A stretch of DNA of 64,000 nucleotides from a virus. Its lineage: Duplodnaviria > Caudoviricetes. The DNA is taken from IMG/VR virus record IMGVR_UViG_3300011480_000001, positions 27,263 to 91,262 of that record, one strand, 5' to 3'. Both the position numbers and the translations under genes were made by a program. This document shows positions 1,990 to 64,000 of the stretch, in pieces. Each line of letters opens with the position of its first letter. Position 1 is the stretch's first letter. The notes below the pieces were generated by a model. That model did no database searches. It was not told the origin of the DNA and saw nothing but the letters and a program-made list of their open reading frames with translations.

Positions 1990-3495
1990 CTAGGTATTTT
2001 CATTATTTGATGTTGAGCTATCGCCACTACCGCCTGAAGAAGAACCAGTTCCATTCCCTAGACCAGTCTCCATCCCGTCACCGCTTCTTGAAGTATCTTC
2101 CCCAAGTAAACTATTTAACTCTTCTTGGGACATATCAACAGGAATACGATAAGGGATATCAGCAGTTTCAAGGATCCAGTTAATCGTCTCTCTAACGCGC
2201 GGGAGATTTCCAGTAGCGGAAACACGTTGAATCCACTTACTAACTTCATCTAGTGAAGGCTTGCTAATCTCACCATAAGTGATTTCTGGCATCACATCAG
2301 TAGAGAATCCGTTTAGCTCAAATAACTGGCGAACTAGGTCGTGATTTAGCTGAGACTTAATCTCGTTCAGTTTACTTTCAATCGCCATTTCAATAACAGA
2401 AATCTTAGTTTCTGCAAGAGAGAAAGAACCAGAACCGTTAGATCCAAGTGAAAGGAAATCAGAGAAAAGGCAAGTAAGAATTTCAGAATTATAACGAGCA
2501 ATAATTGCGTTAGTGTCGTAACTCGATTGTCCTGTTACACTTTTAACCTCAAACTCAAACATTTTATTATTGTTATCGTCTGTGATTAATGGAAGAATGA
2601 TGCCTGATTGTTTAGCTTGATGAATGTTTGCAAGAATCTTTTTATACTCTTCAAACACTGCTTTATCCTGCTCTGTTGCATCAGCCTTCATATACTGAGG
2701 GGGTAGGTAAAGGATCTTGAATCCGTTTACATCCTGTGCAACTCTCATTGCCTCTGATTCCATATAAGCTTGTTTATATTTCCAAGCCTGCCAGCAACCA
2801 TTTAAGGAGCTAACCCCTGTAGGAGAATTCTTTAATGGGTTGTTGCGGAAAAGTAAGAACTTTTTACGAGGAATAAACTTACGCTGAGTTTCTTCACTGT
2901 AAACGAAGTCCCAACCTTGGTAGTCTTCTGGTTGACCAGGTACAACTACGTTTTGATAAAGTCCCGCAAGCTCACGTCCTTTGTTTTTCCATTTCCAGCC
3001 GTCAATAGAATCTTGGGAGCGGATAGGTAGCTTCTTGATACCAATCAGTCCATCATTATACTTACTTCCTTTATCTCTCGTTCTGTATCTGTAACATTTT
3101 TCAATGACACAAAAACCGTAACGATTAAAGCTTACGACTTGTTTGATAAAAGATTGCCAATCCTCCTCCATATCGTACATACACTGGCGTAGGAAATTAG
3201 CTTTATCTTTCAATTCATCTTCATAACCTTCGGGGATTTTTACAACCCAAGGTACACGAGCAATCATCATTTCAACAAGTTCAAGGGCAGGTGCCACAGC
3301 ACCGTCTTTAGCCATTTTCTTGTAAGTTTCACCGGCCATCGGCCACCTTAGCTCCCGGCTGCAATCCTCTAGAATTTGACCTCCTAACGTAAGGAGGCCC
3401 ACATACCCTGTCTCTCCTAGAGTAAGAGCAGGGATATCGTTATTTCCAGGGGACAGTTGAACATCCTCTGAAGACTCAATTTCAACTTCAGCCAT
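1990..3495 (-). CDS. Portal protein (DUF935-like)
   Basis: About 500 aa between terminase and protease; YGFCVIEK and GSFSLAETK motifs. Confidence 0.88.
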   Translation of the reverse strand: MAEVEIESSEDVQLSPGNNDIPALTLGETGYVGLLTLGGQILEDCSRELRWPMAGETYKKMAKDGAVAPALELVEMMIARVPWVVKIPEGYEDELKDKANFLRQCMYDMEEDWQSFIKQVVSFNRYGFCVIEKCYRYRTRDKGSKYNDGLIGIKKLPIRSQDSIDGWKWKNKGRELAGLYQNVVVPGQPEDYQGWDFVYSEETQRKFIPRKKFLLFRNNPLKNSPTGVSSLNGCWQAWKYKQAYMESEAMRVAQDVNGFKILYLPPQYMKADATEQDKAVFEEYKKILANIHQAKQSGIILPLITDDNNNKMFEFEVKSVTGQSSYDTNAIIARYNSEILTCLFSDFLSLGSNGSGSFSLAETKISVIEMAIESKLNEIKSQLNHDLVRQLFELNGFSTDVMPEITYGEISKPSLDEVSKWIQRVSATGNLPRVRETINWILETADIPYRIPVDMSQEELNSLLGEDTSRSGDGMETGLGNGTGSSSGGSGDSSTSNNENT

Positions 3496-3497
3496 CA

Positions 3498-4235
3498 CTA
3501 CCCCTCATTAAACTTTACCCACTTACTATCTTGACAAGGAATCCAACCTTCCTTAAATTTCTTAAGTATAGTAAAAATTGAACTTCTAGGGACTTCATCA
3601 CAATACAACTCATTATAGAGTTTAGTGAATCTACGCTCACCCAGTTTATCAGAGTTAATCCAAACTTCATAAAATACTTGTGCATTCTTCCAAAGCAATG
3701 TTAGATAAGGTCTTGCAACTACCTTAGAAGTTTCCCAAGGAGCAAGATTCTTATTCCTAGCGGCTTTTGACATATTCTTTCTTGCGGTTTCTGATCTTTT
3801 TGCGCCAAGATTAGCCATACGGGTACGCTCTATTGACTCAGGAGATTGTTTCCTGCCTTTGCTTGCAGCTCCAGTTTTCAGCTTAGCTTCTTCTGTATGC
3901 TTCTTACCGAAGAAAGGATTGCCCGCGCCCTTATTAGCTGTTGAGGCTACTATTCGGGCCTTTTCAAATTCTCTTGAAGTAGTCTTATAGCTATTACTCA
4001 TAATCCAATACGCTCTTTGGTATTGTTTACAAGACTTATTAGACTTCCACAAAAGTTTATGGGCAAGGAAATGTTCCCTCAAAGTGAGTAACACTAGGTT
4101 TTCTTTCTTGTTTGATCCACCCATACTTCTCAAGACAATATGGTGCTTCTCAGTATAAAAATTTAATTTATTCTTGTTCAGACCTCTAGCCTGCCTTGAG
4201 TAAACAAGTTTGTTGTAAAGATCTAAGTAATTCAA
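3498..4235 (-). CDS. Free-standing HNH homing endonuclease with NUMOD3 repeats
   Basis: EKHHIVLRSMGGSN...NLVLLTLREHFLAH HNH core; NPFFGKKHTEEAK, GRKQSPES and GAKRSET NUMOD3-like repeats. Confidence 0.88.
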   Translation of the reverse strand: MNYLDLYNKLVYSRQARGLNKNKLNFYTEKHHIVLRSMGGSNKKENLVLLTLREHFLAHKLLWKSNKSCKQYQRAYWIMSNSYKTTSREFEKARIVASTANKGAGNPFFGKKHTEEAKLKTGAASKGRKQSPESIERTRMANLGAKRSETARKNMSKAARNKNLAPWETSKVVARPYLTLLWKNAQVFYEVWINSDKLGERRFTKLYNELYCDEVPRSSIFTILKKFKEGWIPCQDSKWVKFNEG

Positions 4236-4257: not shown

Positions 4258-5941
4258 CTATTGTCCTGCACGTTGAAATGGGTTATCAAAGCTTAGTTGA
4301 GAACCTTGAAGCCCTGATAGGAAGTTTGGAATGTTAATTTTCTGAGCTAATGTAATAAATGAATCACTTGAGGCGTCCACTTGGTCATCTTTTACTCTTC
4401 TTGTTCCATCAAAACCTTCAAGTTCTGAGAAATAGGTTTCATTCCAAGGGGCCTCAACGTAGTCAATAAGACCTGCTTGAGCAGCAGCAGCAAAAGGCTG
4501 GAACCTTACCACTTTTGATTTATTAGAGGGCCGCATGCGAGCAGCGAAACCTTCACCCAATAGATCCTTAATCATCATCTGACCAGCAGCTTTACCAGCT
4601 TGTCCTGGCTCTTGTGGAATAATAATCTGAGTTTCCGGGGGATCTGATTTAGCAGTCTCAATAATCTTTTGCATTACTTCGCCAAACCTAGCCCTGAATC
4701 TCACCACATCCACGACTACATACCTCTGATCTTTAGTCTTCGCGATAAGAACACCACAGGTCCAATCGGGGTTGGGCAGGTCATCCGACGGAAGAGAACC
4801 AGCTATATCCCAAGCCCTACAGTAAGATATAATATTTAAATCTACAAAGCTTGTAGCCTTACACCACTCTTTTTTGAAGTAACCGCTTGAAGATTCACGA
4901 ACAAGCCAATTGCCGTCTAAAAGCCTGGACTTTTCTACGCCCTTAAGACCCTTTAACCACGCAACGTACTTTGGGTTAATTCGTTGCACGATTGGGTTAT
5001 CGGTTACGTTGGCACTGATAAAAGTGAAAGAAAGAATATCCTCTAAAAGTACCCCATACTCTTCTGCAATCTCTTCAGGAGAATCACCCCAAACAAAGTC
5101 ACCATCTTGGAAAGTAAAATAACGAAGCAGTCCATCCTTAGTTCTGTCTGGCGTACCATCTTCATGCAGATAAGGTTCTACCCATTTACGTAAAAAATGA
5201 TCATAGGAAGGATTGCACGTAATTTTAAGCTTAGGTTGTACTTCGGGGCAGTTTGGGTTACGCATACGAGACATGATATACTGAATCATATGCTGCGTGA
5301 ATTGCGTGCCCTCATCTACATAGTACAAATTTGCCTCAGCGCCTTGCCAGTCTTCATCGGCATCATCGTTTTCGAAGTGCTTCATGTAGATTTCAGCTTT
5401 GGACTTGAAGAAAACAAATTTCTTATCTTTAGCATACCAACGATATTCGTCTGGTTTATATGCTTTAGAAAATATACGCTTGCACTTAGATAGAAGTCCA
5501 CCTGGACCCATAAGCTGTGGAGTTGTACGTCGAGTCATTACCCCAATAAAGTTGGGAATGTCTGTGTATTGAAGGAAGTCAATGGCTCCGATTTCAGATT
5601 TACCGGAGCCTGCTGCCAATACTGTTATGAAGTTCGCTAAACTTCTCTCAAGTTTCCCTGAGTGTCGGACCAACTCTTAATTCAAAAGAATTCTCTCTGT
5701 TTCGGGAATCGCTTGACCCCTACTCTACTCACTTCCACTTACGTGTGTTTTCGATGGCCTCTACGCACTGTCTTTAAACATTGGCACGGGATTACCCTCA
5801 GCATTGCCTGTTAGGGCTTCCCCGTTTAAGAGAGTTTTAAATGGAGGCGCAGATTTCACCACCATATAGTGTTACATCAGCTTGACTTTGGACGTACATC
5901 AACTGGCGTTGACTACAAGGTCCCGGTAAGTCTTGATTCAT
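4258..5941 (-). CDS. terL: Terminase large subunit, spliced: exon 1 5941-5858 and exon 2 5616-4258 (about 480 aa)
   Basis: Exon 1 MNQDLPGPCSQRQLMYVQSQADVTLYGG joins in frame to AAGSGKS, restoring Walker A GGAAGSGKS. YVDEG Walker B, TCNP, RAWDIA and DDQVDA motifs. AAGGGA RBS upstream of 5941. Confidence 0.93.
5617..5857 (-). ncRNA. Group I self-splicing intron (241 nt, no ORF, IA2-like) in terL
   Basis: 5' exon ends in U and the intron ends in G. IGS GCCUCCAU pairs with exon AUGGUGGU, with U.G at the splice site. CUGC can pair with 3' exon GCAG (P10). P AAACGGGGAAGCCCU, Q GGGUAAUCCCG, P7 GGCCA/UGGUC, P3 CUCUCU/AGAGAG, P8 AAUUC/GAAUU, P9 CUCAGG-GAAA-CUUGAG. Confidence 0.93.
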
Positions 5942-6971: not shown

Positions 6972-7385
6972 TTAATCTTTCTTGCTACCATCCAACATCG
7001 TCAAGCTAAACCTCTTGACGGGAACTTCAGGAACAACTTCTTCCTTTTCTCCCTCTTCGTTGTTATCTTCAGCTAACTCTTTCTTAAGAGTATAGCGAGA
7101 TTTCTCTTCGTTCAACACAGCAGCTTGAGTCGTAACAGCCCTCTCGCAAATCCATCGGGCGATTTGAAGTTGGTCTTTGTCTTGAACAATTGGATCACCA
7201 TTCTCGTCTTGCTTTGCATCAAGAACAGCATCAATGATTTCCATTGCTTTAGGAACACGAGCAAGCAGTTCGTTAGCTAATTCTTTTAGCTTTGAACGAG
7301 GAATACGCTTGCCTCTGATCCCTTTTTGATTTCGGTTCTGAGGGTTTGAACTTAATCCTTGTTTGTTTCCGACTGGTGCTGCCAT
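6972..7385 (-). CDS. terS: Terminase small subunit (probable)
   Basis: MAAPVGNKQGLSSNPQNRN N-terminus typical of TerS; located upstream of terL; GAGG RBS. Confidence 0.65.
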   Translation of the reverse strand: MAAPVGNKQGLSSNPQNRNQKGIRGKRIPRSKLKELANELLARVPKAMEIIDAVLDAKQDENGDPIVQDKDQLQIARWICERAVTTQAAVLNEEKSRYTLKKELAEDNNEEGEKEEVVPEVPVKRFSLTMLDGSKKD

Positions 7386-8769: not shown

Positions 8770-8797
8770 ATTATACACTATTTATTTATATTGTCAA
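8770..8797 (-). promoter_or_regulatory. Consensus sigma70 promoter for the RNA cluster
   Basis: TTGACA-N16-TATAAT. Confidence 0.85.
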
Positions 8798-9006
8798 CTA
8801 TTTTCGTTATAATCTATCAAATTTAGTGCGTATTCCGTAATATCTCCAAACTGATAGGTCTTTACATCAATATATTCAGAGTTATCTGAAATGAAGATAC
8901 ATGCCGTACACATATCTTCTTCCACGTACATACCTTCAAACTCATCATTGCTTTTATATCGAACCATCCCTGTTAAGGGCGTGTCGCAACATTTACATCT
9001 AGACAT
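8794..9006 (-). CDS. Small zinc-finger protein
   Basis: CKCC...CTAC; 70 aa. Confidence 0.65.
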   Translation of the reverse strand: MSRCKCCDTPLTGMVRYKSNDEFEGMYVEEDMCTACIFISDNSEYIDVKTYQFGDITEYALNLIDYNENS

Positions 9007-9754
9007 TTCTGATAAATCCTATTCCTTTTTCATATTGATTTGGGTCTTTACCAGATTTACTACGATTGCATGTTGGACACAAAAGCTGTAAATTATCAGG
9101 CCAGTGACTTCCACCCTTACACAAAGGCATTATGTGGTCAATATGATAACCTGTGTTATCAAACAAGGCATCACAATAGACACACTGACCTTCTTGATTC
9201 ATGTAAAGGAGTTGAATGTCCGCATTACTAAAATGGCCATCAGCTTCTAATTCACGCTTACGTCTAAGCTGGCTGTAAATCTTAGCCCAAGGTTTGTAAT
9301 TTTCTTTGTTTTCTTTTACACATGCAACGCAAAGTCCTGTCTCAGTAGATCGTTTAGAAAGGTGATTGTTTTTACATGGTAATTTAGTATCATAAAAAGG
9401 CTCATCGAGTTCCTTAGCTATCTCTTTGGTTCTTGGTAAAATATCCAAATCTTCTGAACCAAAGGTGTAGTTCGTCAACAAACCTGTCTTTTCTGTATCT
9501 GAAACTTCTGATAAAGTTTCTCTAATAAACCGCAGAGCTTCTTTTGCTTTCTCTTTCTTGGCAACTCTATTTTCAGCCCGTTCTTCCCATTGGAATGAGT
9601 TTTCAGCTTTATGTTCTTCAAGACATTCACAACATTTGTTTGTAGAAACATACCTATCTGAAATATGACCTTTAATACATGCTTCACCAGTAAAATAGAA
9701 AACTAACCCAAGCTCTTTGGCCTCTTTTCTTGTGATTATTTCCACAATTACCAA
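8999..9754 (-). CDS. HNH endonuclease with two N-terminal Zn-binding repeats
   Basis: CVYC...HIDHIMPLCKGGSHWPDNLQLLCPTCNRSK; duplicated (K)EAKEL...C..(G/N)H.S.R...C..C module. Confidence 0.88.
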   Translation of the reverse strand: MVIVEIITRKEAKELGLVFYFTGEACIKGHISDRYVSTNKCCECLEEHKAENSFQWEERAENRVAKKEKAKEALRFIRETLSEVSDTEKTGLLTNYTFGSEDLDILPRTKEIAKELDEPFYDTKLPCKNNHLSKRSTETGLCVACVKENKENYKPWAKIYSQLRRKRELEADGHFSNADIQLLYMNQEGQCVYCDALFDNTGYHIDHIMPLCKGGSHWPDNLQLLCPTCNRSKSGKDPNQYEKGIGFIRNV

Positions 9755-9828: not shown

Positions 9829-11184
9829 CTATTTCTTATCCACCTTACAAAATGTCTTATCACCTAACACTTCTTCCCAAGCTGAATACATAGCCTCACG
9901 AAGATCGTGTTCAGCAGAAGCTTTTACCAAACAACTATCGTGATACACCAAAACTGTATGATCCTTCTGCACCATCGTTTGAATAATGTTCATCATAATA
10001 TCGGAGTCAACCTTTTGAAGAACAACACCTTTATCTTTGTAGAAGCTTTCAGAAATCAAGTCGTTGTGTTCTTTGATTGCAGACAAAATCCTTTTGACAG
10101 GAATTGTGCCTACGACACCTACAAACAGCTTTTCTTCTTGCTCTTTCTTTTTAGCATCATCCCTCACTTTACCGCTCATAGCACCAACAGCTTGTGCTTC
10201 ATCTACAGAGTTGATACCGATCAGTATAGCAAGCTTTGCAAGATTACGCAAAGGATTGTATGGCTTTCCAATCAGCTTTGATTGTTTTTCAATCTCAAAT
10301 TGATCTACCTGCACAAATGACAAGTCTGCATCATACGGATTGAAACCTTCCCCGAATAAATCGTAAACATTCATCCCATCCTTCAATAGCATCTGATAAC
10401 AAATATTAGGATGTATAGCACTGAAATCCAGTTCAACAACAGGTTCACCATCAATTGTGAGATATTCATTACGTAGACGTTGAGGAAGTAATTGAACACC
10501 TCCACCAGCAGCATAGATACGACCAGCTACATGCATTGTATCTAAGAATACACGTTTGTATTCAACAGTTGCAATCTGCTTACCATTGTATTTAATATCT
10601 GCTTCTTTTAAACTTGAGTTATACGTATCCATCTTTTCTCTTGCCTCTTTAATTCCGATTTTACCGCGAGTACCTAGTTCATCTCCCGTTTTACGATTCC
10701 TCACTTGTACTGAATCATCTACGCGGCACTCAGTAAACAAGTCAACAGGGGGAATGGATGACCAAAGGTCTGTAAGCCTCTTTCTGAAAATCACACAAGA
10801 TGAAATCACATACTCAGGGACTCTCTTACCGTTCTCATATCTCCAAGAGTCAACAAATCCTTTATAGATATGGATATACGCCTTCTCTTCCAAGAATTGA
10901 AGGAGAGCTTTAACACCTCTATACCCAATCTTAGCTTTGTTACCCGTGTAATAACCAGGATCTAAGGATACTCTCATTCCTTCTGCTTTGTTATTAATAG
11001 CTCTTGCCATATTAGATACGAACCACTTAACAGCAATGCTCCATTCTCCTTCTGTGTGAGTTAAGAGAGAGTCAGTGATGTGTTGGTAGTAATCAGACTG
11101 ATGGTAGTGTAGATAGGTATTGGAACAGCTTAAGGATATCCCATGTCTATCTAGTGTACTCATATTACTTAGTTCATAAATCAT
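9829..11184 (-). CDS. Family A polymerase-like protein (palm/fingers, no exonuclease domain seen)
   Basis: GRIY...VQLLP; motif A VELDFSAIHP; motif B-like RNLAK; LQKVDS; motif C YHDS. Confidence 0.65.
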   Translation of the reverse strand: MIYELSNMSTLDRHGISLSCSNTYLHYHQSDYYQHITDSLLTHTEGEWSIAVKWFVSNMARAINNKAEGMRVSLDPGYYTGNKAKIGYRGVKALLQFLEEKAYIHIYKGFVDSWRYENGKRVPEYVISSCVIFRKRLTDLWSSIPPVDLFTECRVDDSVQVRNRKTGDELGTRGKIGIKEAREKMDTYNSSLKEADIKYNGKQIATVEYKRVFLDTMHVAGRIYAAGGGVQLLPQRLRNEYLTIDGEPVVELDFSAIHPNICYQMLLKDGMNVYDLFGEGFNPYDADLSFVQVDQFEIEKQSKLIGKPYNPLRNLAKLAILIGINSVDEAQAVGAMSGKVRDDAKKKEQEEKLFVGVVGTIPVKRILSAIKEHNDLISESFYKDKGVVLQKVDSDIMMNIIQTMVQKDHTVLVYHDSCLVKASAEHDLREAMYSAWEEVLGDKTFCKVDKK

Positions 11185-11363
11185 TGTATCCTCAAGAGAG
11201 ATGTATTGTTATTAGTAAGATAGTAGAGTGATAAGACATATGGTGTATTGTCTAACACGAAAGCCTACACCCCACGTAGCATAAGGGCTACAGAGGAGTT
11301 TCACTTCTCATAGTTCATTTTTTGATCAATTCTAGCTAGCTCTCTAAGCTGCCTTGTCCTATC

Positions 11364-11443
11364 ATTCTACCTGCTTTTTCATCCACGTCAAGCTAAAAAT
11401 TCATAAAAATAAATGTTGCATTCTGGATTCCCCGTGATAGAAT
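11364..11443. promoter_or_regulatory. Divergent sigma70 promoter pair
   Basis: Minus: TTGACG-N16-TAGAAT (11391-11364). Plus: TTGCAT-N16 with extended TGn-TAGAAT (11416-11443). Confidence 0.7.
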
Positions 11444-11474
11444 GACACCATCAACAAACGAATGGAGGTGTTTT

Positions 11475-11639
11475 ATGAATAAGAAAGAATTGCAAAATCT
11501 GTATCAAAAGGCTTGGGAAGAATGGTATCATCGTATTGTACCTAGCGGCGACTGCTCATCTGTACAAGACCAATGGCTTGACAGCTATGACTATGAAGAT
11601 TTCTGTATTGAATATGACACTTATGAAGAGGAGAAATGA
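11475..11639 (+). CDS. Small acidic protein, paralog of 38592-38747
   Basis: GGAGG RBS; QKAWEEWY...PSGD...QWLDSYDY. Confidence 0.7.
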   Translation: MNKKELQNLYQKAWEEWYHRIVPSGDCSSVQDQWLDSYDYEDFCIEYDTYEEEK

Positions 11640-50613: not shown

Positions 50614-52365
50614 ATGACTGAGAAAGTCGATGGGGAATTGCTTTACCACGCAGAATGTATTGAGGAAGACTGCACATCATCCGATGGGATGGCCGTATAT
50701 CAAAAAGAGATTGATGGTGAAAAGATTCTTGATGCGTACTGTTTCGTGTGCCAGAATTATTTCAAGCACGATCAACTTGAAGAAGTTGGTGTGAAAATTA
50801 AAGATGGGAGGAAGAAAGTGTCAGAAGTAGTAGACTTTAGCGAAATCCAAAAGATTGATTTCCGAGGCTGGAAAGAACGCGGTATTGGACAACCGGTATC
50901 AGCAAAGTACGGCGTTCATACTGAGATTGTAAATGAATTTGATGTAGCTGCCCGCTACTATCCATCTACTGTTGATGGTGAAATTGTAGGCTTCAAGAAA
51001 AGAATTGTACCCAAAGACTTTGCAGGTATCGGGAGTACGAAAGCAACGAATCAGTTGTTTGGTCAATCAGTATTTGAAGCTGGGCAAAAGTATCTTGTGA
51101 TCGTGACTGGTGAGGAGGACGCCCTAGCATTTGCACAAGCGCTTTATTCAAAGCGGGATGGAGCAGAGTATTGGACACCTTGCGTTAGTGTGACTTGCGG
51201 TGATGGAAGTATTGTCAAACAGTTTAAGGCTAACTTTGAATATATCAATTCATTTGAAAAGGTGATTCTTGCCTTTGATAACGATGAATCGGCGCAGAAA
51301 CACGTAGAAGAAGCGGCACGTATCCTAGCTCCAGGGAAAGCATTTATTGCTAAGTTCCCGCAAGGAGTTAAAGACGCATCCGACATGTTAAAAGCTGGGC
51401 GATCTGCTGAGCTTAAGCAAATCTTCTGGAAAGCTGTTCCCTTTAGCCGAGTTGATGTACTGCACCTTAGTCAAATGTGGGAAGATTTTGAGAGCGAAGA
51501 CAATAATGTAAAAATTCCATTCCCTAGCTCATGGTCACATCTGAATGAAATGATGAACGGGGGTATGGAAAAAGGTGAAATTACTATTATTGGAGCCTTG
51601 ACTTCTATCGGTAAATCATCCATCATTAACAATGTGGTTTTCCATCTTATCGAAAATACCCGATTTAAGGTTGGCGCCATGTATTTGGAAGGTACAAAGC
51701 GGGAAGTTGTTCGGGATCTATTGTCGCTGGATACTGGAATGAACTTGCGAACAATCAATCGTGATTTGGTAGATATTAATTCTCTGAAACATCGGTTCTT
51801 TGAAAACCTTGCAAAGAAAGATCAGTTTGTTTATGTGGATCATCAAGGTAGTATTTCAACCACAGAGATTTTTGATAAACTGAACTATCTGGCTAAGGCT
51901 GAAAATTGTGATGTAATCATTATCGACCCTGTTCAGGCTGGTGTGAATAGTAGCGATAATGGCGCGATCATTGAGTTTATGGATACGCTCTTGAAGTTTG
52001 CAAAGGAAACAGATACGTGCGTGGTTGCTGTATCACACATGCGTAAACCGTCTGAGGATAATCCACACGCTGTGACGGAATACCAATTAATGGGTTCCTC
52101 AAGTCTGAACCAGATTGCATTCAATACGATCCTAATCAGTCGAGACAAGATGAATGAATGCCCGATTAAAAAATCGGCAACTAAGTTGCAATTGGTAAAA
52201 TGTCGTCGCACTGGTAATACGGGCGAAGCTGGATGGTTGCGTTATGATTCTGCAACAACACATATGTTCGCTACATCTGATCCATATGCTGAGGAAGGTT
52301 TACTATTAGAAGAACCACCATCAGTAGAAAATCTTGAAGTACCCGCACACATGGTTGACTTTTAA
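50614..52365 (+). CDS. DNA primase-helicase (T7 gp4-like)
   Basis: N-terminal Zn ribbon (C...SSDG...YCFVC); TOPRIM GEEDA, FDND and KDASD; helicase GALTSIGKS, IIIDP, VSHMRK and KCRRTG. Confidence 0.93.
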   Translation: MTEKVDGELLYHAECIEEDCTSSDGMAVYQKEIDGEKILDAYCFVCQNYFKHDQLEEVGVKIKDGRKKVSEVVDFSEIQKIDFRGWKERGIGQPVSAKYGVHTEIVNEFDVAARYYPSTVDGEIVGFKKRIVPKDFAGIGSTKATNQLFGQSVFEAGQKYLVIVTGEEDALAFAQALYSKRDGAEYWTPCVSVTCGDGSIVKQFKANFEYINSFEKVILAFDNDESAQKHVEEAARILAPGKAFIAKFPQGVKDASDMLKAGRSAELKQIFWKAVPFSRVDVLHLSQMWEDFESEDNNVKIPFPSSWSHLNEMMNGGMEKGEITIIGALTSIGKSSIINNVVFHLIENTRFKVGAMYLEGTKREVVRDLLSLDTGMNLRTINRDLVDINSLKHRFFENLAKKDQFVYVDHQGSISTTEIFDKLNYLAKAENCDVIIIDPVQAGVNSSDNGAIIEFMDTLLKFAKETDTCVVAVSHMRKPSEDNPHAVTEYQLMGSSSLNQIAFNTILISRDKMNECPIKKSATKLQLVKCRRTGNTGEAGWLRYDSATTHMFATSDPYAEEGLLLEEPPSVENLEVPAHMVDF

Positions 52366-52410: not shown

Positions 52411-54597
52411 TTGGAAAAGAAATGGTTTGAAGGGGATTGGGTTTTTGATATTGAAACCTACCCCAACTGCTTTACGTTCGCTACTATGTATTCAAACGGT
52501 AAAGGAATGCGAGCTTTTGAAATCAGTGATCGTAAGAATGAAGTAGAAGAATTACTTGATTTCTTCCGCAAGGTGAAAGGTGCCGGTCACAGGTTCGTAG
52601 GGTTTAATAACAATAACTTTGACTATCCAGTAATTCACCACATTTTGCAGAAAGCCCGTAAAGTGCATGGAACTGAAAAGAAGCTGAAAGTCACAGCAAA
52701 AGAGTTGTATGATGTAGCAATGAAGCTGATTAATTCAAGCAAAGAAAACAAGTTTGGCTCTGCTATTAAAGAAAAAGATGTGATTATTCCTCAAGTGGAT
52801 TTGTTTAAAGTCCATCACTTTGATAACAAAGCTCGGGCTACTTCATTGAAAATGCTTGAATACAATATGCGTTCCAATGACATTGAGGATCTACCATTTC
52901 CTGTCGGGATGACACTAAATGATGAACAGAAAGACATCTTAATCAAATACAACAAACACGACGTCAGTGAAACACTAAAGTTTTATTGGTATTCGTTTGA
53001 AAATCTAAAGCTTCGCAAGGATCTGACGGAGCAGTTTGGTTTTGATTGCACCAATTTCAACGACACAAAGATTGGTAAAGAGTTGTTTATCCGTACACTG
53101 GAAAAGGAAGCTCCGGGCTGTTGCTACACTAAAACTGAATTTGGTAGAGAAGTACGACAAACCAAACGTGACAAGATTGTAATTAAAGAGTGTCTTTTTC
53201 CTTACATTAAGTTTGATCGACCAGAGTTCCAAGCTGTTCATAAATGGTTTCAGAATCAAGTTATCACTGAGACTAAAGGCGTATTCAGTGATTTGATGGA
53301 ACACCAACTTGGTGATGTAGCTAAATACGCTGAAATGGTCGTAAAAAAGAAAAAGCTGTCTGATCCAGTTGATAAGAAAAATAAGCGTTATGTACCAAGC
53401 GAAGAAGTGATTGCGGAACGCAGGAAAGAACAACCACTAGGTTGGCTTGAGGAAAAGGAACTAAAATCACCAAAGGGAGCTAAAAGCTATTACTGGTGTT
53501 GGAATGTAGCTGAGACACTGAACGTTTTGATCAATGGTTTCCGTTATGATTATGGTGTTGGTGGTATTCATGGGGCAACTCAAGGAACTATCCGAAGCAC
53601 TAACAGTCGAAAGATACGGACGCTCGACGTTGCGAGCTACTATCCCAACATGGCGATTGCAAATGAGATTTACCCGAAGCACCTTGGTAAGACTTTCTGT
53701 AAAGTGTATGCTGATTTGTATGAGCAACGTAAAGCAACACCGAAAGGATCAGCCGCTAACGCAGCATTGAAGCTTGCCCTTAATGGGGTCTACGGTGATT
53801 CAAATAACGAGTTCAGTCCACTGCTTGATCCAGCTTACACAATGTCGATTACGATTGGTGGACAGCTTTCACTTTGTATGTTGATGGAAAAGTTGATTGA
53901 TCATTGCAACGCTCGAATCATTATGTGTAACACCGATGGTTTTGAGTATGTAATTGATATTGATAAGTTTGAAGAAGCAGATAAGTGGGTTAAATGGTGG
54001 GAGGATTTGACTAAACTTCAAATGGAAGGTGACACTTACAAGCAAATGTTCATTCGTGACGTTAACAACTACATCAGTATTACAGAATCGGGTAAAGTGA
54101 AGCTTAAAGGTGCCTATGAGTTTATGGATTTTGATAAGCTCGGATGGCATAAAAACCACAGCGCAATGGTAATTCCAATGGCTGTGAAAGCACACTTGGT
54201 TGATGGTATTGATTACGAAGAATTTATTCGTCTACATGAGAATAAGTTTGACTTCATGCTCCGCACTAAAGTACCACGTAGCAGTAAGCTTGTGCTTGTG
54301 GTTGATGAAGAAGATGTACCGCTTCAAAACATTTGCCGTTACTATCCAGCAAAGGAAGGTGGTGGTAAGCTGATTAAAATCATGCCACCATTGGTTGAAG
54401 GTGGTGAGGATCGTCGTCTAGGGATTGACACTGAGTGGAACGTGAAGCCATGCAACAACATTAACGACTTCTCTTGGGGAGTTGACTATAAATATTACAT
54501 CGATCAAGCAGCAAAACTAATCGAAGCTGTCTCGGAGGATGTTACTGATAAGCAAGGTAAGAATTGTGAAAGAACTATGGAAACCGATCCTGATTGA
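52411..54597 (+). CDS. DNA polymerase, family B
   Basis: ExoI DIET, ExoII FNNNNFD, ExoIII YNKHD; polymerase motifs DVASYYP, KLALNGVYG and NTDG. Confidence 0.93.
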   Translation: MEKKWFEGDWVFDIETYPNCFTFATMYSNGKGMRAFEISDRKNEVEELLDFFRKVKGAGHRFVGFNNNNFDYPVIHHILQKARKVHGTEKKLKVTAKELYDVAMKLINSSKENKFGSAIKEKDVIIPQVDLFKVHHFDNKARATSLKMLEYNMRSNDIEDLPFPVGMTLNDEQKDILIKYNKHDVSETLKFYWYSFENLKLRKDLTEQFGFDCTNFNDTKIGKELFIRTLEKEAPGCCYTKTEFGREVRQTKRDKIVIKECLFPYIKFDRPEFQAVHKWFQNQVITETKGVFSDLMEHQLGDVAKYAEMVVKKKKLSDPVDKKNKRYVPSEEVIAERRKEQPLGWLEEKELKSPKGAKSYYWCWNVAETLNVLINGFRYDYGVGGIHGATQGTIRSTNSRKIRTLDVASYYPNMAIANEIYPKHLGKTFCKVYADLYEQRKATPKGSAANAALKLALNGVYGDSNNEFSPLLDPAYTMSITIGGQLSLCMLMEKLIDHCNARIIMCNTDGFEYVIDIDKFEEADKWVKWWEDLTKLQMEGDTYKQMFIRDVNNYISITESGKVKLKGAYEFMDFDKLGWHKNHSAMVIPMAVKAHLVDGIDYEEFIRLHENKFDFMLRTKVPRSSKLVLVVDEEDVPLQNICRYYPAKEGGGKLIKIMPPLVEGGEDRRLGIDTEWNVKPCNNINDFSWGVDYKYYIDQAAKLIEAVSEDVTDKQGKNCERTMETDPD

Positions 54598-55139: not shown

Positions 55140-56340
55140 ATTACCAACGTTTTAAAAATCAAAGGAGAAACGTGATGTACAAAGCAAAAACTGAGCTAGA
55201 CCACATTATCTGCGACAAGCTATCTGAAGGCGATCTTGCAGACATTCAATTTAAGCACTATCCGGCACTGATTGATTTTGTAAAGACTTTTGCAATGGAC
55301 TGTATTCACGATAGTGAACTTCAAGATATGCTGTTTGAAGACCTTTCAGGAATTGAAGAAATTGCAATTGAAACAGAAGCAAGTAAACTTGCTGGTGAAG
55401 ATGGAGCAACCTACTGGAATGCTTACTTTATCCCACAGCTTGGAGTGATTCTTCAAGTAACTGCAACCGATGAACAAGATGCGCAACAAGCATATGAAGC
55501 TTATGTAAAGGAAAATGTAAAATGAAATCAGAAGAAAAGCTTGATTTGGTAGACAAGCTAGATTATTATGAACGGCTTCTAGATTTCCTAGATGATGTGG
55601 TTCCATGTTTGGATGAGTTGATTGCACAATTTGACGAGGATGAAGAATAATGAAAGTAACAAATGAACAAGCACGAGAGCTTCTAGAACTGTTCCGTGTT
55701 GGGGACAACACTTTAAATTGGGAGGATTTCCCAGTAAAAGTTGAGTTGATTCAGGAAGAGCTAATTGATACAAGTCGTTGGAGCCACATTCACGAACGTA
55801 TTTACAAAGACCTTGAATCTGGTAAATTCTACGCAACCACCTACTCAACAGGTGCTACTGAATGTCAAGATGAAACACCCTATGAATACGATGGCGAAAT
55901 CATCGAGTTTGATGAAGTCGTACCAGTAGAAGTTGTTAAAATTGAATACCACGCTGTAAAATAAACAGGAGAAACAAAATGGCTAAAACAATTTACACCT
56001 ACGAAATCGTTGCAAATAACACTGCAATCGTAACTGATCTTGAATCGCGTAGCCTTGCCCGCGAAGAGCTTCAATTGGTAAAGAAACAAGGTTATCCAAA
56101 AGCTAAGATTATTCAGCGGCAATATCAGCTTGTTAAAGAGGCTCAAGTGCGATGAAAACAGATAAGGAGCTTCAACAGATTGCCGAAGAGTGGCTTGAAG
56201 CTACAGTTGATGCATGGTTTTGGGAATACGGCTCATGGGATGATCTTATCATGGATGGGGTTATTACCGAGGAAGAACTAGAACAAATTCAATCTAAGGT
56301 TCGCTTCACACACAAAAGCTATATTAAATAAGGAGATAAA

Positions 56341-56640
56341 ATGAAAGCACTAGCAGTTATTGGTATCGTTCTCGGGGCAATTACAGCAATCGCACTGTTT
56401 GCAATTTACAATGCTTGGGTGTTGAGTATTTTGTGGGGATGGTTTATTGCCCCGCTTGGAGTAAAATCGTTGAGCATTGCTCACGCATATGGTGTTACAC
56501 TTGTAGCTGGTTTGTTCTTGAGTACTCGTGGTATCAAAGAAAACAAGAATCAAGATGATTGGATTTCAAGTCTTATCACTTGGCTGATTCTACCGCTTGC
56601 AGCACTCTTTCTAGGCTGGATTGCTGTTGGCTTTATGTAA
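56341..56640 (+). CDS. Hypothetical membrane protein
   Basis: Three hydrophobic segments. Confidence 0.7.
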   Translation: MKALAVIGIVLGAITAIALFAIYNAWVLSILWGWFIAPLGVKSLSIAHAYGVTLVAGLFLSTRGIKENKNQDDWISSLITWLILPLAALFLGWIAVGFM

Positions 56641-56722
56641 AGAATTCTAGCGAAAGCTTGAATAATAGCCTCAACAAAGTAATGTGACTAAATAATACAC
56701 ACGTAAATAGAGAGAAATAAAT

Positions 56723-57427
56723 ATGACTAAGAAAGCTCAACTGAAAACTGAAGTGATTGTCCGTGATCTGCCGAAGAAAGGTGATTTTGAAACTTTGAAT
56801 ATCTACCTGAAGAATGTTCCTGTATTCTATCCGGTGGTTCATGAAGTTAAGAAGAAATACCAATCAGAAGAACGTGAATATAGCTGCACCGTCTTCGTGG
56901 ACGAAGAAGCTAAAGACAAACTTCTGGATGAAGTGATGCTGAATAAAACCTTTGCCCTAGTCGGCAAGGATAAGACCAGCAAACCACCACGTCGCATCAA
57001 ATTTCCCCTGTCTTCGCAAGTAGAAGAAGGTAAGATTCATTACGATGCAGTTGATGGTATGTATGGTTTCAGTGTTGCCAAGCCTGAATTCAGCAAGCAA
57101 GGTAACAAGATGGTTGTAAACGTTATCGACACCGAAGGTAAACCATTTACTGAGAACGTGGGTAACGAAAGTGTTGTAAACCTGAAGCTGTTTGGCTACC
57201 GTAACAAAGAAGGTCAAGTTGTTGTAACGCTTGACACCATGCAAGTAGTTGAGCATGTACCATTTGAAAGTAAGGGTGCTGCTGATTCTATTCAGGATGA
57301 TGTTTTTGGGGTGAGTTACAGCGTTAAGAAGGCTGATAAGCCAGCGGTGGAACAACAACAAGTTCCTGCTAACAAGGGTCCAGCTTTTGAAAGTCAAGAC
57401 GAACTAGACGACAGCTTGCCGTTCTGA
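56723..57427 (+). CDS. Single-stranded DNA-binding protein (T7 gp2.5-like)
   Basis: VGNESVVNL OB-fold segment; acidic tail ending DDSLPF; located in the replication module. Confidence 0.7.
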   Translation: MTKKAQLKTEVIVRDLPKKGDFETLNIYLKNVPVFYPVVHEVKKKYQSEEREYSCTVFVDEEAKDKLLDEVMLNKTFALVGKDKTSKPPRRIKFPLSSQVEEGKIHYDAVDGMYGFSVAKPEFSKQGNKMVVNVIDTEGKPFTENVGNESVVNLKLFGYRNKEGQVVVTLDTMQVVEHVPFESKGAADSIQDDVFGVSYSVKKADKPAVEQQQVPANKGPAFESQDELDDSLPF

Positions 57428-57874
57428 TCTAATTACAAAAGCACACGGATGTGCATTATTTAAAGGAGAAACACATGGGTACTGTAGTGCGACAAGAAAC
57501 AAACGAGTACGGATCAACACTTCTAAGCTTTGAAAACTATCAAGACTTCCTTGATTATCAAAAGAAAGAACGTGAGCAAGATGCTTTAGATGTAGCAGAG
57601 GCAGCTAATAAACGAAACGATATGGTTTCAAAATTCATGGATGCTTTTAATGCCCCACGTAGTGAATATCGACTTGAACTATCAGAAGAAGAGTATTACT
57701 ATCTGTCTTGCATTCTAGGGCATCTAGTCCCTGCTGGTGATATTAGTAAGAGTTTGCTGGATAAAGTAGGCTTGGATGATTTGGATGTGAATGATTTTGA
57801 TAAGGTAAAATTTAATCAATGTCCAAATTACCCACAAATTGAACTGAACGAAAATAAGTAAGGAGAAATAAATA

Positions 57875-58882: not shown

Positions 58883-59249
58883 GGAGTTATCATGGGCGTA
58901 GAAGTTACTGCTTACACTTACATTGGTGTTTACACAGAAGATGCTGAACAATACCTAATTGAGAAAGGCCTTCTGAAACAAGATCAGCTTCACGAAGAAT
59001 ATGATGGGGATATTCAGGGTCTCTATGAATACTATGACTTCCCACTTCAAGTACAGAAAGTCAGTTATTATTCTGATCAGGGTGCTTACGTTGGCTTTGA
59101 AGTGGAGCCAAGTAATTACAAAGACTTTGATGGTTTGATTGCTAAATTTAAAGAAATTACTAGTGATGATGCTGAAGTGGTTACGTTTGAACAATGGCAT
59201 TGATTGAATACTAGGGAGCTTTTAGCTCCCTTTTTACTAAGAGGGATAA

Positions 59250-60182
59250 ATGGAGAAGCTATTAGTAATCGATACGGATACAATCTTATATTCGTCGGCG
59301 GCCATGCACCAAGAGAATAACTGCAATGTGATCCACAAAGCATCCGGCAGGGAAAAACTCTTCGTCTCAAAGACTGCCTTCAACGATTGGATCAAATCTC
59401 AAGACAAGTGGTCTAAAGATGAGTTTGATTTCCAGACAGTTAGTAAGGTAGTCGGTGAACCTAGATTTGCTTTTCAATCAATCAAACAAAAAATTGAAAA
59501 TGTAATTGAAGCAACAGGTATCAGTGATTTCAAGATTTGTATTGAGGGGGAAGGAAACTTCAGGAAAGATTTTAAGTCTGAATTCGTGCAGTATAAATCC
59601 CACCGCCCACCTAAGCCTTTGTTGTTTGATGAGTGTCGTGAGTTCTTGGTGAAGAAGTATAAAAAACAACTTGTAGAAGCAGTAGGTCGTGAAACAGATG
59701 ATAATTGCAATATCTTTGCTTGGGAGAGTTACAACAAAGGGTTGACTAAAAGAAGTCGAGAAGCCTCTGATGTTGTTTTGGCTTATGTGGATAAAGATTT
59801 AGCCGCCAATAGTCGTGGTTGGATGTTCAACTACTTTAAACCAGAGCAAGGTGTTTTTTGGAATGACGGCCTTACCCAGTCCTATAATTTTGCTACGCAG
59901 ATGTTGACTGGCGACGGTGCAGATGCAATCCCAGGAATTGAGAAGTTATCTGATGAGATACGAGAGAAGTATAAGATCAAAACTAAAGGGGTTGGTCCAG
60001 CAACAGCAGAAAAGCTTTTAGCTGATTGCAAGACAGAGCAAGAGATTGCACAAAGAGTCAAAGAGTGCTATGAATCTGCTTGGGAAGGTAATTGGGCTAA
60101 GCGAATGAATGAGAATGGATTCTTCCTATACCTTCTTCGCAGTGATCAGGATAGTTGGAACATGGAGAGGTATTTACAATGA
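59250..60182 (+). CDS. 5'-3' exonuclease (T7 gp6/FEN-like)
   Basis: IDTD, NFR...YKSHR, ETDD, DKD and GDGADAIPG motifs. Confidence 0.9.
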   Translation: MEKLLVIDTDTILYSSAAMHQENNCNVIHKASGREKLFVSKTAFNDWIKSQDKWSKDEFDFQTVSKVVGEPRFAFQSIKQKIENVIEATGISDFKICIEGEGNFRKDFKSEFVQYKSHRPPKPLLFDECREFLVKKYKKQLVEAVGRETDDNCNIFAWESYNKGLTKRSREASDVVLAYVDKDLAANSRGWMFNYFKPEQGVFWNDGLTQSYNFATQMLTGDGADAIPGIEKLSDEIREKYKIKTKGVGPATAEKLLADCKTEQEIAQRVKECYESAWEGNWAKRMNENGFFLYLLRSDQDSWNMERYLQ

Positions 60183-60739
60183 ATCCTTGGGAAGAGGCGC
60201 CACATATCTGGCCTACTAAATCTAGCTTTTTTACCTTCCTGCGTGGAGCACTGCGGCGAGCTATTTGGGAGAAATGGCCACTTAAGATTGAGTTTAAAAA
60301 CGAAGTGTGTGATGTTCCGCCAGAAGGCTACAAAGGCCGTGCAAAATCTGGTGCATATTGTGCCTTATCTGGTGAATGGGTAGGTAAATCAGCTTCGGAA
60401 ATAGACCATATTCTTGGCAATGTCTCTTTGAAAGATTGGGAGGACGTACTACCTTTCATCTTGCACCTCTGTGCATCCAAAGATAATATGCAACTGGTGT
60501 CAAAGGAAGCACACAAAATTAAGAGCTACGCTGAAAAAATGGGAATTAGTTTCGAAGAGGCCTCTTATGTCAAAGAGGCAATTGCTTTAGTAAAAGATAA
60601 AAAAGATGTTGCGTGGATTAAAGAGAAAGGTTATACTCCTGCTACGTCTAGTGCTAAAAGGCGTTTACAAATAGTGGAAATTCTTAAAAGAGAAGCCGAA
60701 AAGGTTTCAGGAGAACAAGAAGATGCAGAAGCTAACTAA
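60179..60739 (+). CDS. HNH-fold endonuclease
   Basis: CALSG...EIDH...NMQLVSKEAHKIKS. Confidence 0.65.
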   Translation: MNPWEEAPHIWPTKSSFFTFLRGALRRAIWEKWPLKIEFKNEVCDVPPEGYKGRAKSGAYCALSGEWVGKSASEIDHILGNVSLKDWEDVLPFILHLCASKDNMQLVSKEAHKIKSYAEKMGISFEEASYVKEAIALVKDKKDVAWIKEKGYTPATSSAKRRLQIVEILKREAEKVSGEQEDAEAN

Positions 60740-63598: not shown

Positions 63599-64000
63599 TT
63601 GAAAGTCAAAGTAAAACGTCTGTATGAATCCGCTAAACTACCAACTTACGCAACTGAAGGTAGTGGTTGTTTTGATATTTACACGATGCTAAATGGTGAC
63701 GTTGAAGACAACGATCCTCATGTATTTTCTACTGGGTTAGCTTTTGAAATTCCAGAAGATCATGTTATGCTTGTGCTTAGTCGTAGTGGTCATGGATTTA
63801 AACATGACGTTCGTTTGAGTAATTGCGTTGGTGTGATTGATTCAGACTATCGTGGTGAGCTTAAAGTAAAGCTTACTTGTGATAAGCTCAATTGGGGTCT
63901 TGATATTGCAGCAGGAGAACGAGTTGCACAAGGTATGATTATCCCAATTGAAAAAGTAGAATTTGAAGAAGTTCGAGAGTTGTCAGAAACTGTACGTGGT
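63599..64000 (+). CDS. dut: Trimeric dUTPase (partial, runs off the window)
   Basis: LPTYATEGSGCFD, SRSG, GVIDSDYRGE, GERVAQ and TVRG motifs; TTG start after AAGGAG. Confidence 0.93.
   Translation, partial: MKVKVKRLYESAKLPTYATEGSGCFDIYTMLNGDVEDNDPHVFSTGLAFEIPEDHVMLVLSRSGHGFKHDVRLSNCVGVIDSDYRGELKVKLTCDKLNWGLDIAAGERVAQGMIIPIEKVEFEEVRELSETVRG

Follow-up and report, generated by a model that had tools for sequence, protein, structure and literature searches.

A divPolA2 polymerase beside a family B replicase

The window analysed here, a 64-kb stretch of a 91-kb phage genome, carries on its minus strand (9829..11184) an open reading frame of 451 aa that encodes a divPolA2-family polymerase (PHROG 4756, E 1.4e-83). 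The gene heads a minus-strand structural block of 31 kb, which runs on to TerL (4258-5673), the portal (1990-3498) and the head protease (605-1975), and a divergent intergenic region of 351 bp (11185..11535, as delimited by script ORF calling) separates this block from a plus-strand block of small genes. An alternative 65-aa open reading frame within the divergent region starts at 11442, and the open reading frame adjoining the polymerase gene encodes an HNH endonuclease. A first-pass annotation of this DNA had the gene leading into an RNA cluster and the head genes; the latter part is borne out by the TerL, portal and protease genes, whereas the RNA cluster is not, as neither tRNAs (ARAGORN) nor RNA families (Rfam) were detected anywhere in the 64-kb window. 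A tRNA cluster occupies the equivalent place in a relative, Pseudomonas phage vB_PsaM_M1.

The phage encodes its replicative DNA polymerase elsewhere, on the plus strand at 52411..54597 (phrog_1252, E 1.8e-181), which agrees with the complete PolB recorded earlier at 52.4 kb. Family-B-type motifs (DVASYYPN, KLALNGVYG and NTDG) and the ExoI-III motifs of a 3'-5' exonuclease can be read directly in this protein, which has an RNase_H_2 N-terminus and lies near an atlas cluster in which 11% of the members carry PF00136. Because this separate PolB, complete with exonuclease, adjoins the gene for a Toprim primase-helicase (50614-52365), the 451-aa enzyme is not expected to be the replicase.

A homology search returned 107 homologues of the 451-aa protein, and by tblastn it matches 115 records of Rheinheimera Barba phages (E 7e-10) over residues 31-437, or 90% of the query. 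These phages are the founders of divPolA2, a family named in 2024 by Yutin, Tolstoy, Mutz, Wolf, Krupovic and Koonin (Virol J 21:200, PMC11348598), and the gene itself is thus not new. Besides this homology, the palm and fingers of the protein are PolA-like, motifs A, B and C are present and the catalytic residues are conserved; it has no 3'-5' exonuclease, a globular domain at its N-terminus stands in for the canonical thumb, and the phage encodes a separate replicative polymerase as well. We therefore consider it almost certain that the gene is a divPolA2 that combines a catalytically intact core of the Pol I/T7-RNAP superfamily, devoid of exonuclease and canonical thumb, with a fused winged-helix-like N-terminal domain, beside a family B replicase. 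The first-pass annotation had offered a minimal RNA polymerase, a priming or initiator enzyme or an RNA-associated polymerase, and did not include the 2024 description. One copy was found in the 91-kb genome, and one in each of the five related genomes that were searched. Some phages among the tblastn matches show two matching places, and some phages carry two to three divPolA2 paralogues (PMC11348598).

A profile search ties the protein to 7,185 representatives of clusters built at 50% identity. No Pfam family, DNA_pol_A included, matches the query at E <= 10 or any of 52 distant members at E <= 0.01, NCBIfam holds no match, PDB sequences give none by phmmer or with two profiles, and in the protein atlas the 451-aa protein falls with unnamed clusters only. 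Alignment of the family profile by hhalign gives a probability of 0.3% for T7 RNAP, with no sequence-level similarity, and of 0.14% for T7 DNAP (gp5). That so large a family should be entirely unannotated, matching neither Pfam nor NCBIfam, could speak for some other use of the polymerase core, be it synthesis of a counter-defence decoy or signalling nucleic acid, template-independent transfer, or a role mainly as an autoregulated DNA- or RNA-binding regulator.

Predicted fold and active site

The AF2 model of the protein (pLDDT 92.5) is predicted to adopt the right-hand fold of a family-A/T7-RNAP polymerase domain. Together with the invariance of the acidic residues in homologues, this supports the initial view of a second, stand-alone family-A-like polymerase. 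The polymerase domain (residues ~149-451, 9829..10740, minus strand) contains, in the order first read by eye, GRIY (G221-Y224), DFSAIHP (D253-P259), RNLAK (R313-K317) and YHDS (Y414-S417). The GRxY β-hairpin, made of strands 209-214 and 220-225, supplies G221 and R222; motif A supplies D253, H258 and P259; the O-helix motif B supplies R313, K317, L321 and N325; and motif C supplies H415, D416 and S417. Across 115 sequences (63 close and 52 distant homologues, down to 22% identity), no or almost no variation is seen at G221, R222, D253, H258, R313, K317, H415 and D416.

Residues 1-148 (10741..11184, minus strand) form a separate, winged-helix-like domain with a four-stranded extended β-wing. 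In the predicted structure this domain matches solely winged-helix DNA-binding folds, with weak scores, and it stands where the canonical thumb and exonuclease region would be; it may well bind DNA. Neither exonuclease motifs nor exonuclease fold matches were found in the 451-aa protein, in line with the earlier reading.

The active site departs from both relatives. The absence of a motif-B Tyr-Gly, already remarked upon, is confirmed: the motif terminates in N325-S326. By correspondence of motif pattern and secondary structure, N325 (113 of 115 sequences) occupies the motif-B Tyr position, and the invariant H258, at D+5, that of the Pol I steric-gate Glu; the T7 segments used for comparison were taken from NC_001604 and were equated in the same manner rather than by residue-level superposition. 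The catalytic Asp pair lies 163 residues apart, which indicates compact fingers, nearer to Pol I than to T7 RNAP. At the position that we take, from the T7 and Klenow motifs, to align with T7 RNAP H784, column counts give Gln, as in DNA polymerases. The sugar specificity of the product may be set by an active site of this H258/N325 type, and its uniqueness means that chemistry beyond the known range is possible.

These residues bear on two further explanations. The protein could be a specialised single-subunit RNA polymerase, made early and transcribing part of the phage genes (those of the middle or late class, or a single long operon, for instance the structural block), with the winged-helix domain as a promoter-recognition module in place of the T7-type N-terminal domain. 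GRIYA resembles the GRVYA of T7 RNAP rather than the GRATH of T7 DNAP, motif C is HDS as in T7 RNAP and not HDE as in T7 DNAP, and the Pol I steric-gate Glu has given way to an invariant His; on the other hand, an invariant Asn stands at the position of the T7 RNAP motif-B Tyr, Y639, and both the Gln at the position aligned with H784 and the compact fingers are at odds with such an enzyme. Poor processivity, which is to be expected of a core without a thumb, would likewise suit a transcriptase badly. Alternatively, the protein could be an accessory DNA polymerase that repairs DNA, fills gaps, matures Okazaki fragments or bypasses lesions, complementing a PolB replicase that has no such activity, which is the first option put forward by Yutin et al. 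(PMC11348598). Its motif A (D-[YF]-S-x-I) and motif B (R-x-x-A-K) fit the DNA polymerase pattern, as do the compact fingers, and enzymes devoid of thumb and exonuclease are typically distributive, which should suit short patches. Yet all three Pol I hallmarks of dNTP selection and catalysis, namely the Glu of the steric gate, the Tyr of motif B and the Glu that ends HDE, are swapped for other invariant residues, and the failure to match DNA_pol_A even at E 10, or T7 DNAP with an hhalign probability of even 1%, also counts against a repair polymerase.

The divergent region and its conserved leader

The position of the gene is conserved. In 44 of 44 loci, drawn from several phage groups and flanked by a variety of modules, primase-helicase blocks among them, a divergent strand switch lies upstream at a distance of at most 2.2 kb. 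In 25 of the 44 the gene is the first open reading frame past the switch. Genome-wide, the minimum of the cumulative GC skew falls at 38 kb of the genome (window ~10.7-11.7 kb) and coincides with the divergent region. Within 11185-11535 there are no iterons, just short two-copy matches, and no obvious AT-rich unwinding element.

Directly 5' of the gene, and always in the same orientation, lies a conserved leader element (11242..11310, minus strand) of the form …CTGTAGCCC-11 nt-GGGGTGTAG…GTGTTAGACAATACA, 58-126 nt upstream of the ATG. It gives a single nhmmer match in the 91-kb genome and one per related locus (21 loci, E < 1e-3). Between this element and the ribosome-binding site runs a G-poor C/T/A tract (11194..11243, minus strand; 2% G), and across 19 loci such tracts of 34-74 nt average 3.9% G, against 20.6% in the genome. 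A second copy of ACAATACA at 11202-11209, inside the tract, makes a direct repeat with the copies 42 nt apart. The conservation of the leader is at the level of sequence, with no conserved hairpin. A structured RNA element was rejected because three tests were all negative: RNAalifold gives no consensus structure, a hairpin drawn by eye pairs less well than shuffles do on average (56.6% of cells, one compensatory change), and the leader has no folding advantage over shuffles (z -0.64).

The sigma70 promoter claimed for the gene in the first-pass annotation corresponds to TTGACG-16-TAGAAT (11391-11364, minus strand), ~180 nt upstream; it is present, but the region has no more promoter-like sites than shuffles have (17 observed, 17.5 expected), and we treat it as a consensus match only. 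Apart from the terminal repeat, the 91-kb genome holds no exact repeats of at least 14 nt. Among intergenic 10-mers with one mismatch allowed, the best is AAGATTATTT, present in 13 of 54 regions where shuffles reach 9 at most; it was discarded as a multi-copy promoter candidate, its flanks being incoherent. No multi-copy phage promoter emerged from these k-mer and one-mismatch intergenic searches, which short or degenerate promoters would escape.

For a dedicated RNA polymerase, a location at the head of the 31-kb structural block would be apt, and paralogues might provide separate promoter specificities where several exist. The lack of a repeated promoter-like sequence among exact repeats and 10-mers argues the other way, as does the finding that the sole conserved non-coding element occurs once per genome. 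A repair polymerase, for its part, would need neither a DNA-binding domain of the sequence-specific type nor a place at the divergent region nor a single-copy cis element. The leader could serve as an autoregulatory operator, which would fit a regulator built on the polymerase core. We nevertheless judge a use of this other sort, whether regulatory, counter-defensive or transferase-like, to be highly improbable: the position of the gene is fixed and core-genome-like even between distant phage groups, and not within variable accessory islands, no defence or anti-defence genes were seen among its neighbours, and a purely regulatory role is disfavoured by the invariance of the full catalytic residue set.

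The ICP1 homologue and a proposed initiator role

No public sequencing run matches above 29% of the words sampled, and none of the runs listed is of RNA. A homologue is available in ICP1 of Vibrio cholerae, where ORF100 matches with a profile E of 2.2e-103. ORF100 reaches 12.9-33k reads at 4 min and is down by 16 min, and the ICP1 DNA polymerase, ORF58, does not rise before 8 min. Such early expression recalls T7 gene 1 and would be in keeping with an RNA polymerase, a reading that we regard, all evidence considered, as unlikely but worth keeping in mind. Expression ahead of the replicase is harder to reconcile with repair. Gap filling would moreover be redundant in ICP1, as a full Pol I-type replicase coexists there with ORF100, and we hold an accessory repair enzyme to be quite unlikely.

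The peak of the early bidirectional origin of ICP1 has been placed 'near the 60 kb position'. In the reference of the origin-mapping laboratory ORF100 occupies 56.0-57.7 kb, at a distance of 2-4 kb; this proximity is weak evidence, because the origin was mapped in 1-kb bins and is described approximately. Neither a finer mapping nor a mention of ORF100 was found in the literature. We know of no origin initiator for ICP1.

The reading that we prefer, and which we put forward as plausible though short of probable, is that divPolA2 is an early-expressed, site-specific initiator polymerase. Host RNA polymerase would transcribe the gene from the divergent control region immediately after infection. 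The winged-helix domain would then put the enzyme at one DNA site, most plausibly within or close to the region upstream of its own gene, where the thumb-less, poorly processive core might yield just a short RNA or DNA chain. Extension of this chain by the PolB/primase-helicase replisome would begin theta replication. A site-specific rather than a general role is suggested by the exclusively winged-helix matches, the absence of a multi-copy promoter from the k-mer and one-mismatch searches and the once-per-genome leader element. The strand-switch position, with the GC-skew minimum at that point in this genome, and the early expression and origin proximity of ORF100 also speak for an initiator; low processivity, de novo initiation and the link to an origin are what we infer for the enzyme. 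The proposed role may be likened to those of T7 RNAP at the T7 primary origin, of the mitochondrial RNAP that primes mtDNA, and of the A-family primase CCPol-MP.

Several considerations weigh against an initiator. GC skew and strand switches follow the direction of transcription as well as that of replication, any early gene would be expected first past a divergent promoter region, and the conserved leader might simply control translation or transcription of the divPolA2 gene. The phage already has a Toprim primase-helicase, the upstream region offers neither iterons nor an obvious AT-rich unwinding element, and the two to three paralogues of some phages are awkward for an enzyme that serves a single origin.

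A bolder form of the initiator proposal, which we consider doubtful, is that in virulent phages divPolA2 forms a third class of enzymes that start replication, next to the DnaG-type and archaeo-eukaryotic primases. Guided by its winged helix, the thumb-less enzyme would recognise a unique site within its own leader or adjacent to it and make the first leading-strand primer at a theta origin, its His steric gate and O-helix Asn would decide the type of chain made, and ORF100 would be the missing initiator of ICP1.

The family is very large and is present in phages as well studied as ICP1. Should divPolA2 start replication or drive a transcription programme, a gap in the biology of Felix O1-like, Barba-like and ICP1-like phages would be filled, given that no origin initiator is known to us for ICP1, and the enzyme repertoire would gain a minimal, possibly site-specific polymerase of ~300 catalytic residues. 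Early expression, a fixed position at a divergent region and a single cis element make the role directly testable in ICP1, for which genetics, marker-frequency DNA-seq and RNA-seq are established.

Comparison with known polymerases

Several observations go beyond the original account of the family (PMC11348598). That account describes a variable neighbourhood, whereas the gene is always found here just downstream of a divergent strand switch (44/44 loci); it describes the N-terminal domain as unlike known domains, whereas we see a weak winged-helix likeness. The dedicated, single-copy leader element with its G-poor tract, the negative outcome of the multi-copy promoter searches, and the timing and position of the ICP1 homologue are further additions.

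Relative to T7 RNAP, mitochondrial RNAP, N4 RNAPII and vRNAP, divPolA2 is about half the size and lacks the T7-type N-terminal promoter-binding domain. Aligned by pattern, its motif A has His for G542 of T7 RNAP (D537...G542) and its motif B has Asn for the rNTP-selecting Y639, while the T/DxxGR motif (AGRIYA versus RGRVYA) and the HDS of motif C (YHDS versus IHDS) are shared. Unlike Klenow, Taq, T7 gp5 and the apicoplast polymerase, divPolA2 has neither exonuclease nor canonical thumb, and in pattern-based alignment with family A DNA polymerases it shows Glu to His258, Tyr-Gly to Asn325-Ser326 and HDE to HDS (S417), each invariant or nearly so.

A further comparison is with TV-Pol and CCPol-MP of SCCmec (Iyer et al. 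2008, PMC2579912; Bebel et al. 2020, PMC7581432). TV-Pols retain a coiled-coil thumb (PMC2579912), in contrast to divPolA2. CCPol keeps the ribonucleotide-discriminating Glu of Pol I, where divPolA2 has His, and uses dNTPs; it also depends on a small protein partner, MP, and works together with a helicase (PMC7581432), whereas divPolA2 has no conserved adjacent partner. No conserved open reading frame abuts the divPolA2 gene (the best adjacent cluster occurs in 6 loci only), and linkage to a D5-type/Cch2 helicase or a small MP-like protein was not seen at divPolA2 loci. The likeness resides in the minimal A-superfamily core without proofreading, defined by a β-hairpin Arg, two catalytic Asp and an RxxxK motif (PMC2579912), for which divPolA2 offers R222 in its hairpin, D253, D416 and R313-x3-K317. 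TV-Pols are likewise found in mobile elements and viruses, and some bear an uncharacterised N-terminal globular domain (PMC2579912). As CCPol-MP is an A-family polymerase that has been shown experimentally to act as a primase (PMC7581432), it provides a functional precedent for the initiator role that we propose for divPolA2.

A divPolA2 polymerase in a phage with its own PolB

The open frame at window 9829-11184 (minus strand) encodes 451 aa, with a GAGGA ribosome-binding site four bases 5' of the ATG and an N terminus, MIYEL, common to homologues in a 63-homologue alignment. The four motifs read in the first-pass annotation are all found in the order it gave, GRIY (residues 221-224), DFSAIHP (253-259), RNLAK (313-317) and YHDS (414-417); it was also right that exonuclease motifs and the motif-B Tyr-Gly are missing, for the protein has no exonuclease domain and its motif B terminates in Asn-Ser. 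Ten residues, G221, R222, D253, H258, P259, R313, K317, N325, H415 and D416, are invariant in the 63 homologues (33-94% identity), and R222, D253, H258, R313, K317, H415 and D416 are still invariant in 52 more distant members (22-44% identity), 50 of which also retain N325. Both acidic residues, D253 and D416, are therefore unchanged in the close and the distant set alike, and motif conservation of this kind is, as judged from the alignments, well beyond chance motif matching.

The sole match by a sequence method was PHROG 4756, of unknown function. Searches of Pfam (up to E 10), NCBIfam and PDB sequences (phmmer and profiles), and hhalign against T7 RNA polymerase (RNAP) and T7 DNA polymerase (DNAP), returned nothing, and no sequence method tried ties the protein to a named family. 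An AlphaFold2 model made from the 63-sequence alignment (mean pLDDT 92.5, pTM 0.88) matched Pol I/T7 RNAP-type structures, as the annotation had anticipated. The top Foldseek matches in the PDB were all Pol I-type DNA polymerases (E 3e-7). A second, independent structure aligner placed residues ~148-451 on the apicoplast DNA polymerase (score 13.3; 251 residues aligned, rmsd 4.4), Aquifex Pol I (12.8), yeast mitochondrial RNAP (12.3), Pol nu (11.3), T7 DNAP and Klenow (both 11.1), T7 RNAP (10.9), N4 mini-vRNAP (8.3) and N4 RNAPII (6.8). The modelled secondary structure agrees with the canonical motifs: a beta-strand that leads into a helix has D253 at its end, one long helix (the O-helix) holds R313-N325, and a beta-hairpin turn carries H415-D416.

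The divPolA2 family came to light in 110 Rheinheimera Barba phages, whose 80-85-kb genomes encode PolB as well; its members have an active palm and an N-terminal globular domain but lack an exonuclease and a canonical thumb (Yutin et al. 2024, PMC11348598). Since every defining feature is present here, we regard the divPolA2 identity as secure. With tblastn, 115 Barba-phage records matched across 90% of the query; the closest annotated relative is an Ounavirinae phage, which falls in a clade treated in the same study (PMC11348598). A profile search recovered 7,185 cluster representatives (E <= 1e-3), of which 4,658 also passed E <= 1e-10, and our literature search did not find the name divPolA2 in any later paper. 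The family, described in 2024, is thus not new; the gene adds a member to it, and the observations on position and leader are new here.

A complete replicative polymerase at 52411-54597 (plus strand) was correctly reported; it matches phrog_1252 'DNA polymerase' (E 1.8e-181), its N terminus is RNase H-like, and a Toprim/DnaB primase-helicase gene (50614-52365) precedes it. Exonuclease motifs (ExoI FDIET, ExoII NNNNFDYPV, ExoIII YNKHD) and family-B-type motifs (A DVASYYPN, B KLALNGVYG, C NTDG) can be read directly. Because motif C is NTDG rather than the usual family-B DTD(S/G), and searches of Pfam DNA_pol_B, NCBIfam and PDB sequences were all without match, we consider this enzyme a very divergent family-B polymerase.

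Position at a divergent control region

The window belongs to a complete 91,262-bp genome with short direct terminal repeats, in which the divPolA2 gene is single-copy. Judging by shared 14-mers at genome 1/91159 and 67/91225, the repeat is apparently just ~104 bp long (window 63897-64000 and genome 1-104); its first 14 nt recur a third time at genome 89117 (window 61855). As first noted, the gene heads the block leading into the head genes, being the first of a ~31-kb minus-strand block of packaging, head and further structural genes. The 'RNA cluster' also placed there was not recovered, ARAGORN and Rfam giving no RNA gene within the 64-kb window; a relative has a tRNA cluster at the equivalent place. 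A plus-strand small-gene block diverges across a 351-bp intergenic region (11185-11535), which also coincides with the cumulative GC-skew minimum.

In five relatives (80-39% identity) and in Pseudomonas phage vB_PsaM_M1 the gene again lies close after a divergent strand switch, while the flanking modules vary, two of the relatives having a primase-helicase in the divergent block. Across 44 loci (Ounavirinae-like, ICP1-like and other phages), crude ORF calling puts a divergent switch <=2.2 kb upstream every time, and in 25 of them no other ORF intervenes between switch and gene. No conserved small partner gene adjoining it was found.

Downstream, two homing-type endonuclease genes break up the minus-strand block. 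One, of HNH/EndoVII type (8999-9754, minus), sits immediately after the polymerase gene, at a place occupied by small ORFs in relatives; the other, containing NUMOD3 (3498-4235, minus), lies between TerL and portal, and phage M1 likewise has a homing endonuclease beside its terminase. Of the genes downstream, the one most widely shared (16 loci) lies just before TerL (6972-7385, minus); its product, a basic protein of 137 aa, is a candidate small terminase subunit, and the counterpart in one relative weakly matches DUF5681. A 70-aa Cys-rich protein (8794-9006, minus) with CxxC…CxxC, common to 10 loci at variable distance downstream, is probably a zinc ribbon; such a protein is annotated in the same stretch of M1.

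A conserved leader element

A ~70-nt nhmmer model, …CTGTAGCCC-11 nt-GGGGTGTAG…GTGTTAGACAATACA, captures a conserved leader 5' of the gene (11242-11310, minus). The model has a single match in the whole genome and one in each of 21 related loci (E < 1e-3), invariably immediately upstream of the polymerase gene and in its orientation. A conserved RNA hairpin was considered and rejected, the element being conserved instead as sequence and composition. It is followed by an almost G-free tract of 34-74 nt, variable in sequence between loci (mean 3.9% G in 19 loci versus 20.6% for the genome; 2% for the copy at 11194-11243, minus); the two together span 11194-11310 (minus), and ACAATACA occurs twice in the window leader, 42 nt apart. 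Candidate roles are an operator, a translational enhancer, an initiation site or an origin component.

The gene's proposed sigma70 promoter is present as TTGACG-16-TAGAAT at 11391-11364, although only as a consensus match of a kind equally frequent in shuffles. A genome-wide search for a repeated phage promoter gave nothing convincing. Allowing one mismatch, the 10-mer AAGATTATTT is present in 13 of 54 intergenic regions (window ~20000-47000), where shuffles reached <=9. Most copies precede small genes by 23-105 nt and share their orientation; a promoter class serving the small-gene blocks may include it, but its flanks show no clear consensus.

Product and possible function

Comparison with the T7 enzymes (NC_001604) used correspondences from motif pattern and secondary structure rather than residue-level superposition. 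The GR hairpin (GRIYA; GRVYA in T7 RNAP, GRATH in T7 DNAP) and motif C (HDS, as in T7 RNAP; HDE in T7 DNAP/Pol I) are RNAP-like, and a specialised RNAP is a possible, if rather unlikely, reading. DNAP-like, as in T7 DNAP/Pol I, are the motif A pattern D-[YF]-S-x-I, the motif B pattern R-x-x-A-K and the compact fingers; a repair or gap-filling DNAP is an unlikely reading. The conserved Q390 presumably aligns with Klenow Q849 and T7 RNAP H784, which would also be DNAP-like. Two positions resemble neither: His258 at the steric gate (Gly in T7 RNAP, Glu in T7 DNAP/Pol I) and Asn325 at the O-helix position that is Tyr both in T7 RNAP and in T7 DNAP/Pol I. With all three kinds of position together, sugar specificity is not callable from sequence.

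The homologue in the Vibrio cholerae phage ICP1, ORF100 (58951-60618 of ICP1_2006_E MH310934; profile E 2.2e-103), is annotated as hypothetical and has a divergent strand switch ~1.3 kb upstream. In a published triplicate RNA-seq time course (PMC7567579), its reads numbered 12,916, 13,474 and 33,422 at 4 min, 20,238, 41,302 and 30,740 at 8 min, and 16,752, 10,834 and 10,888 at 16 min; those of the DNA polymerase ORF58 rose from 7,126, 6,349 and 26,313 at 4 min to 58,704, 110,442 and 110,512 at 8 min. ORF100 is therefore an early gene, on before the replicase. By marker-frequency sequencing, the same laboratory found that theta replication at 8 min proceeds in both directions from one origin 'near the 60 kb position' (PMC7145576), and ORF100 lies at 56,043-57,710 in that laboratory's engineered reference; given 1-kb bins and the approximate wording, the relation is one of proximity, not coincidence. 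Our literature search found neither an initiator for this origin nor any comment on ORF100.

We tentatively favour a polymerase that acts early and at a specific site, as an initiator or in making primers, because its front domain (residues 1-148) is of a probable DNA-binding type, the thumb is lost, the genome search gave no promoter family, one cis element is dedicated to the gene, its place at the divergent control region is fixed, and the ICP1 homologue is expressed early and lies near a mapped origin. Roles other than these three seem improbable. CCPol-MP, an A-family enzyme that acts as a primase, gives a precedent for an initiator or primer-making role; it retains the Glu and uses dNTPs, whereas the polymerase described here has His258.
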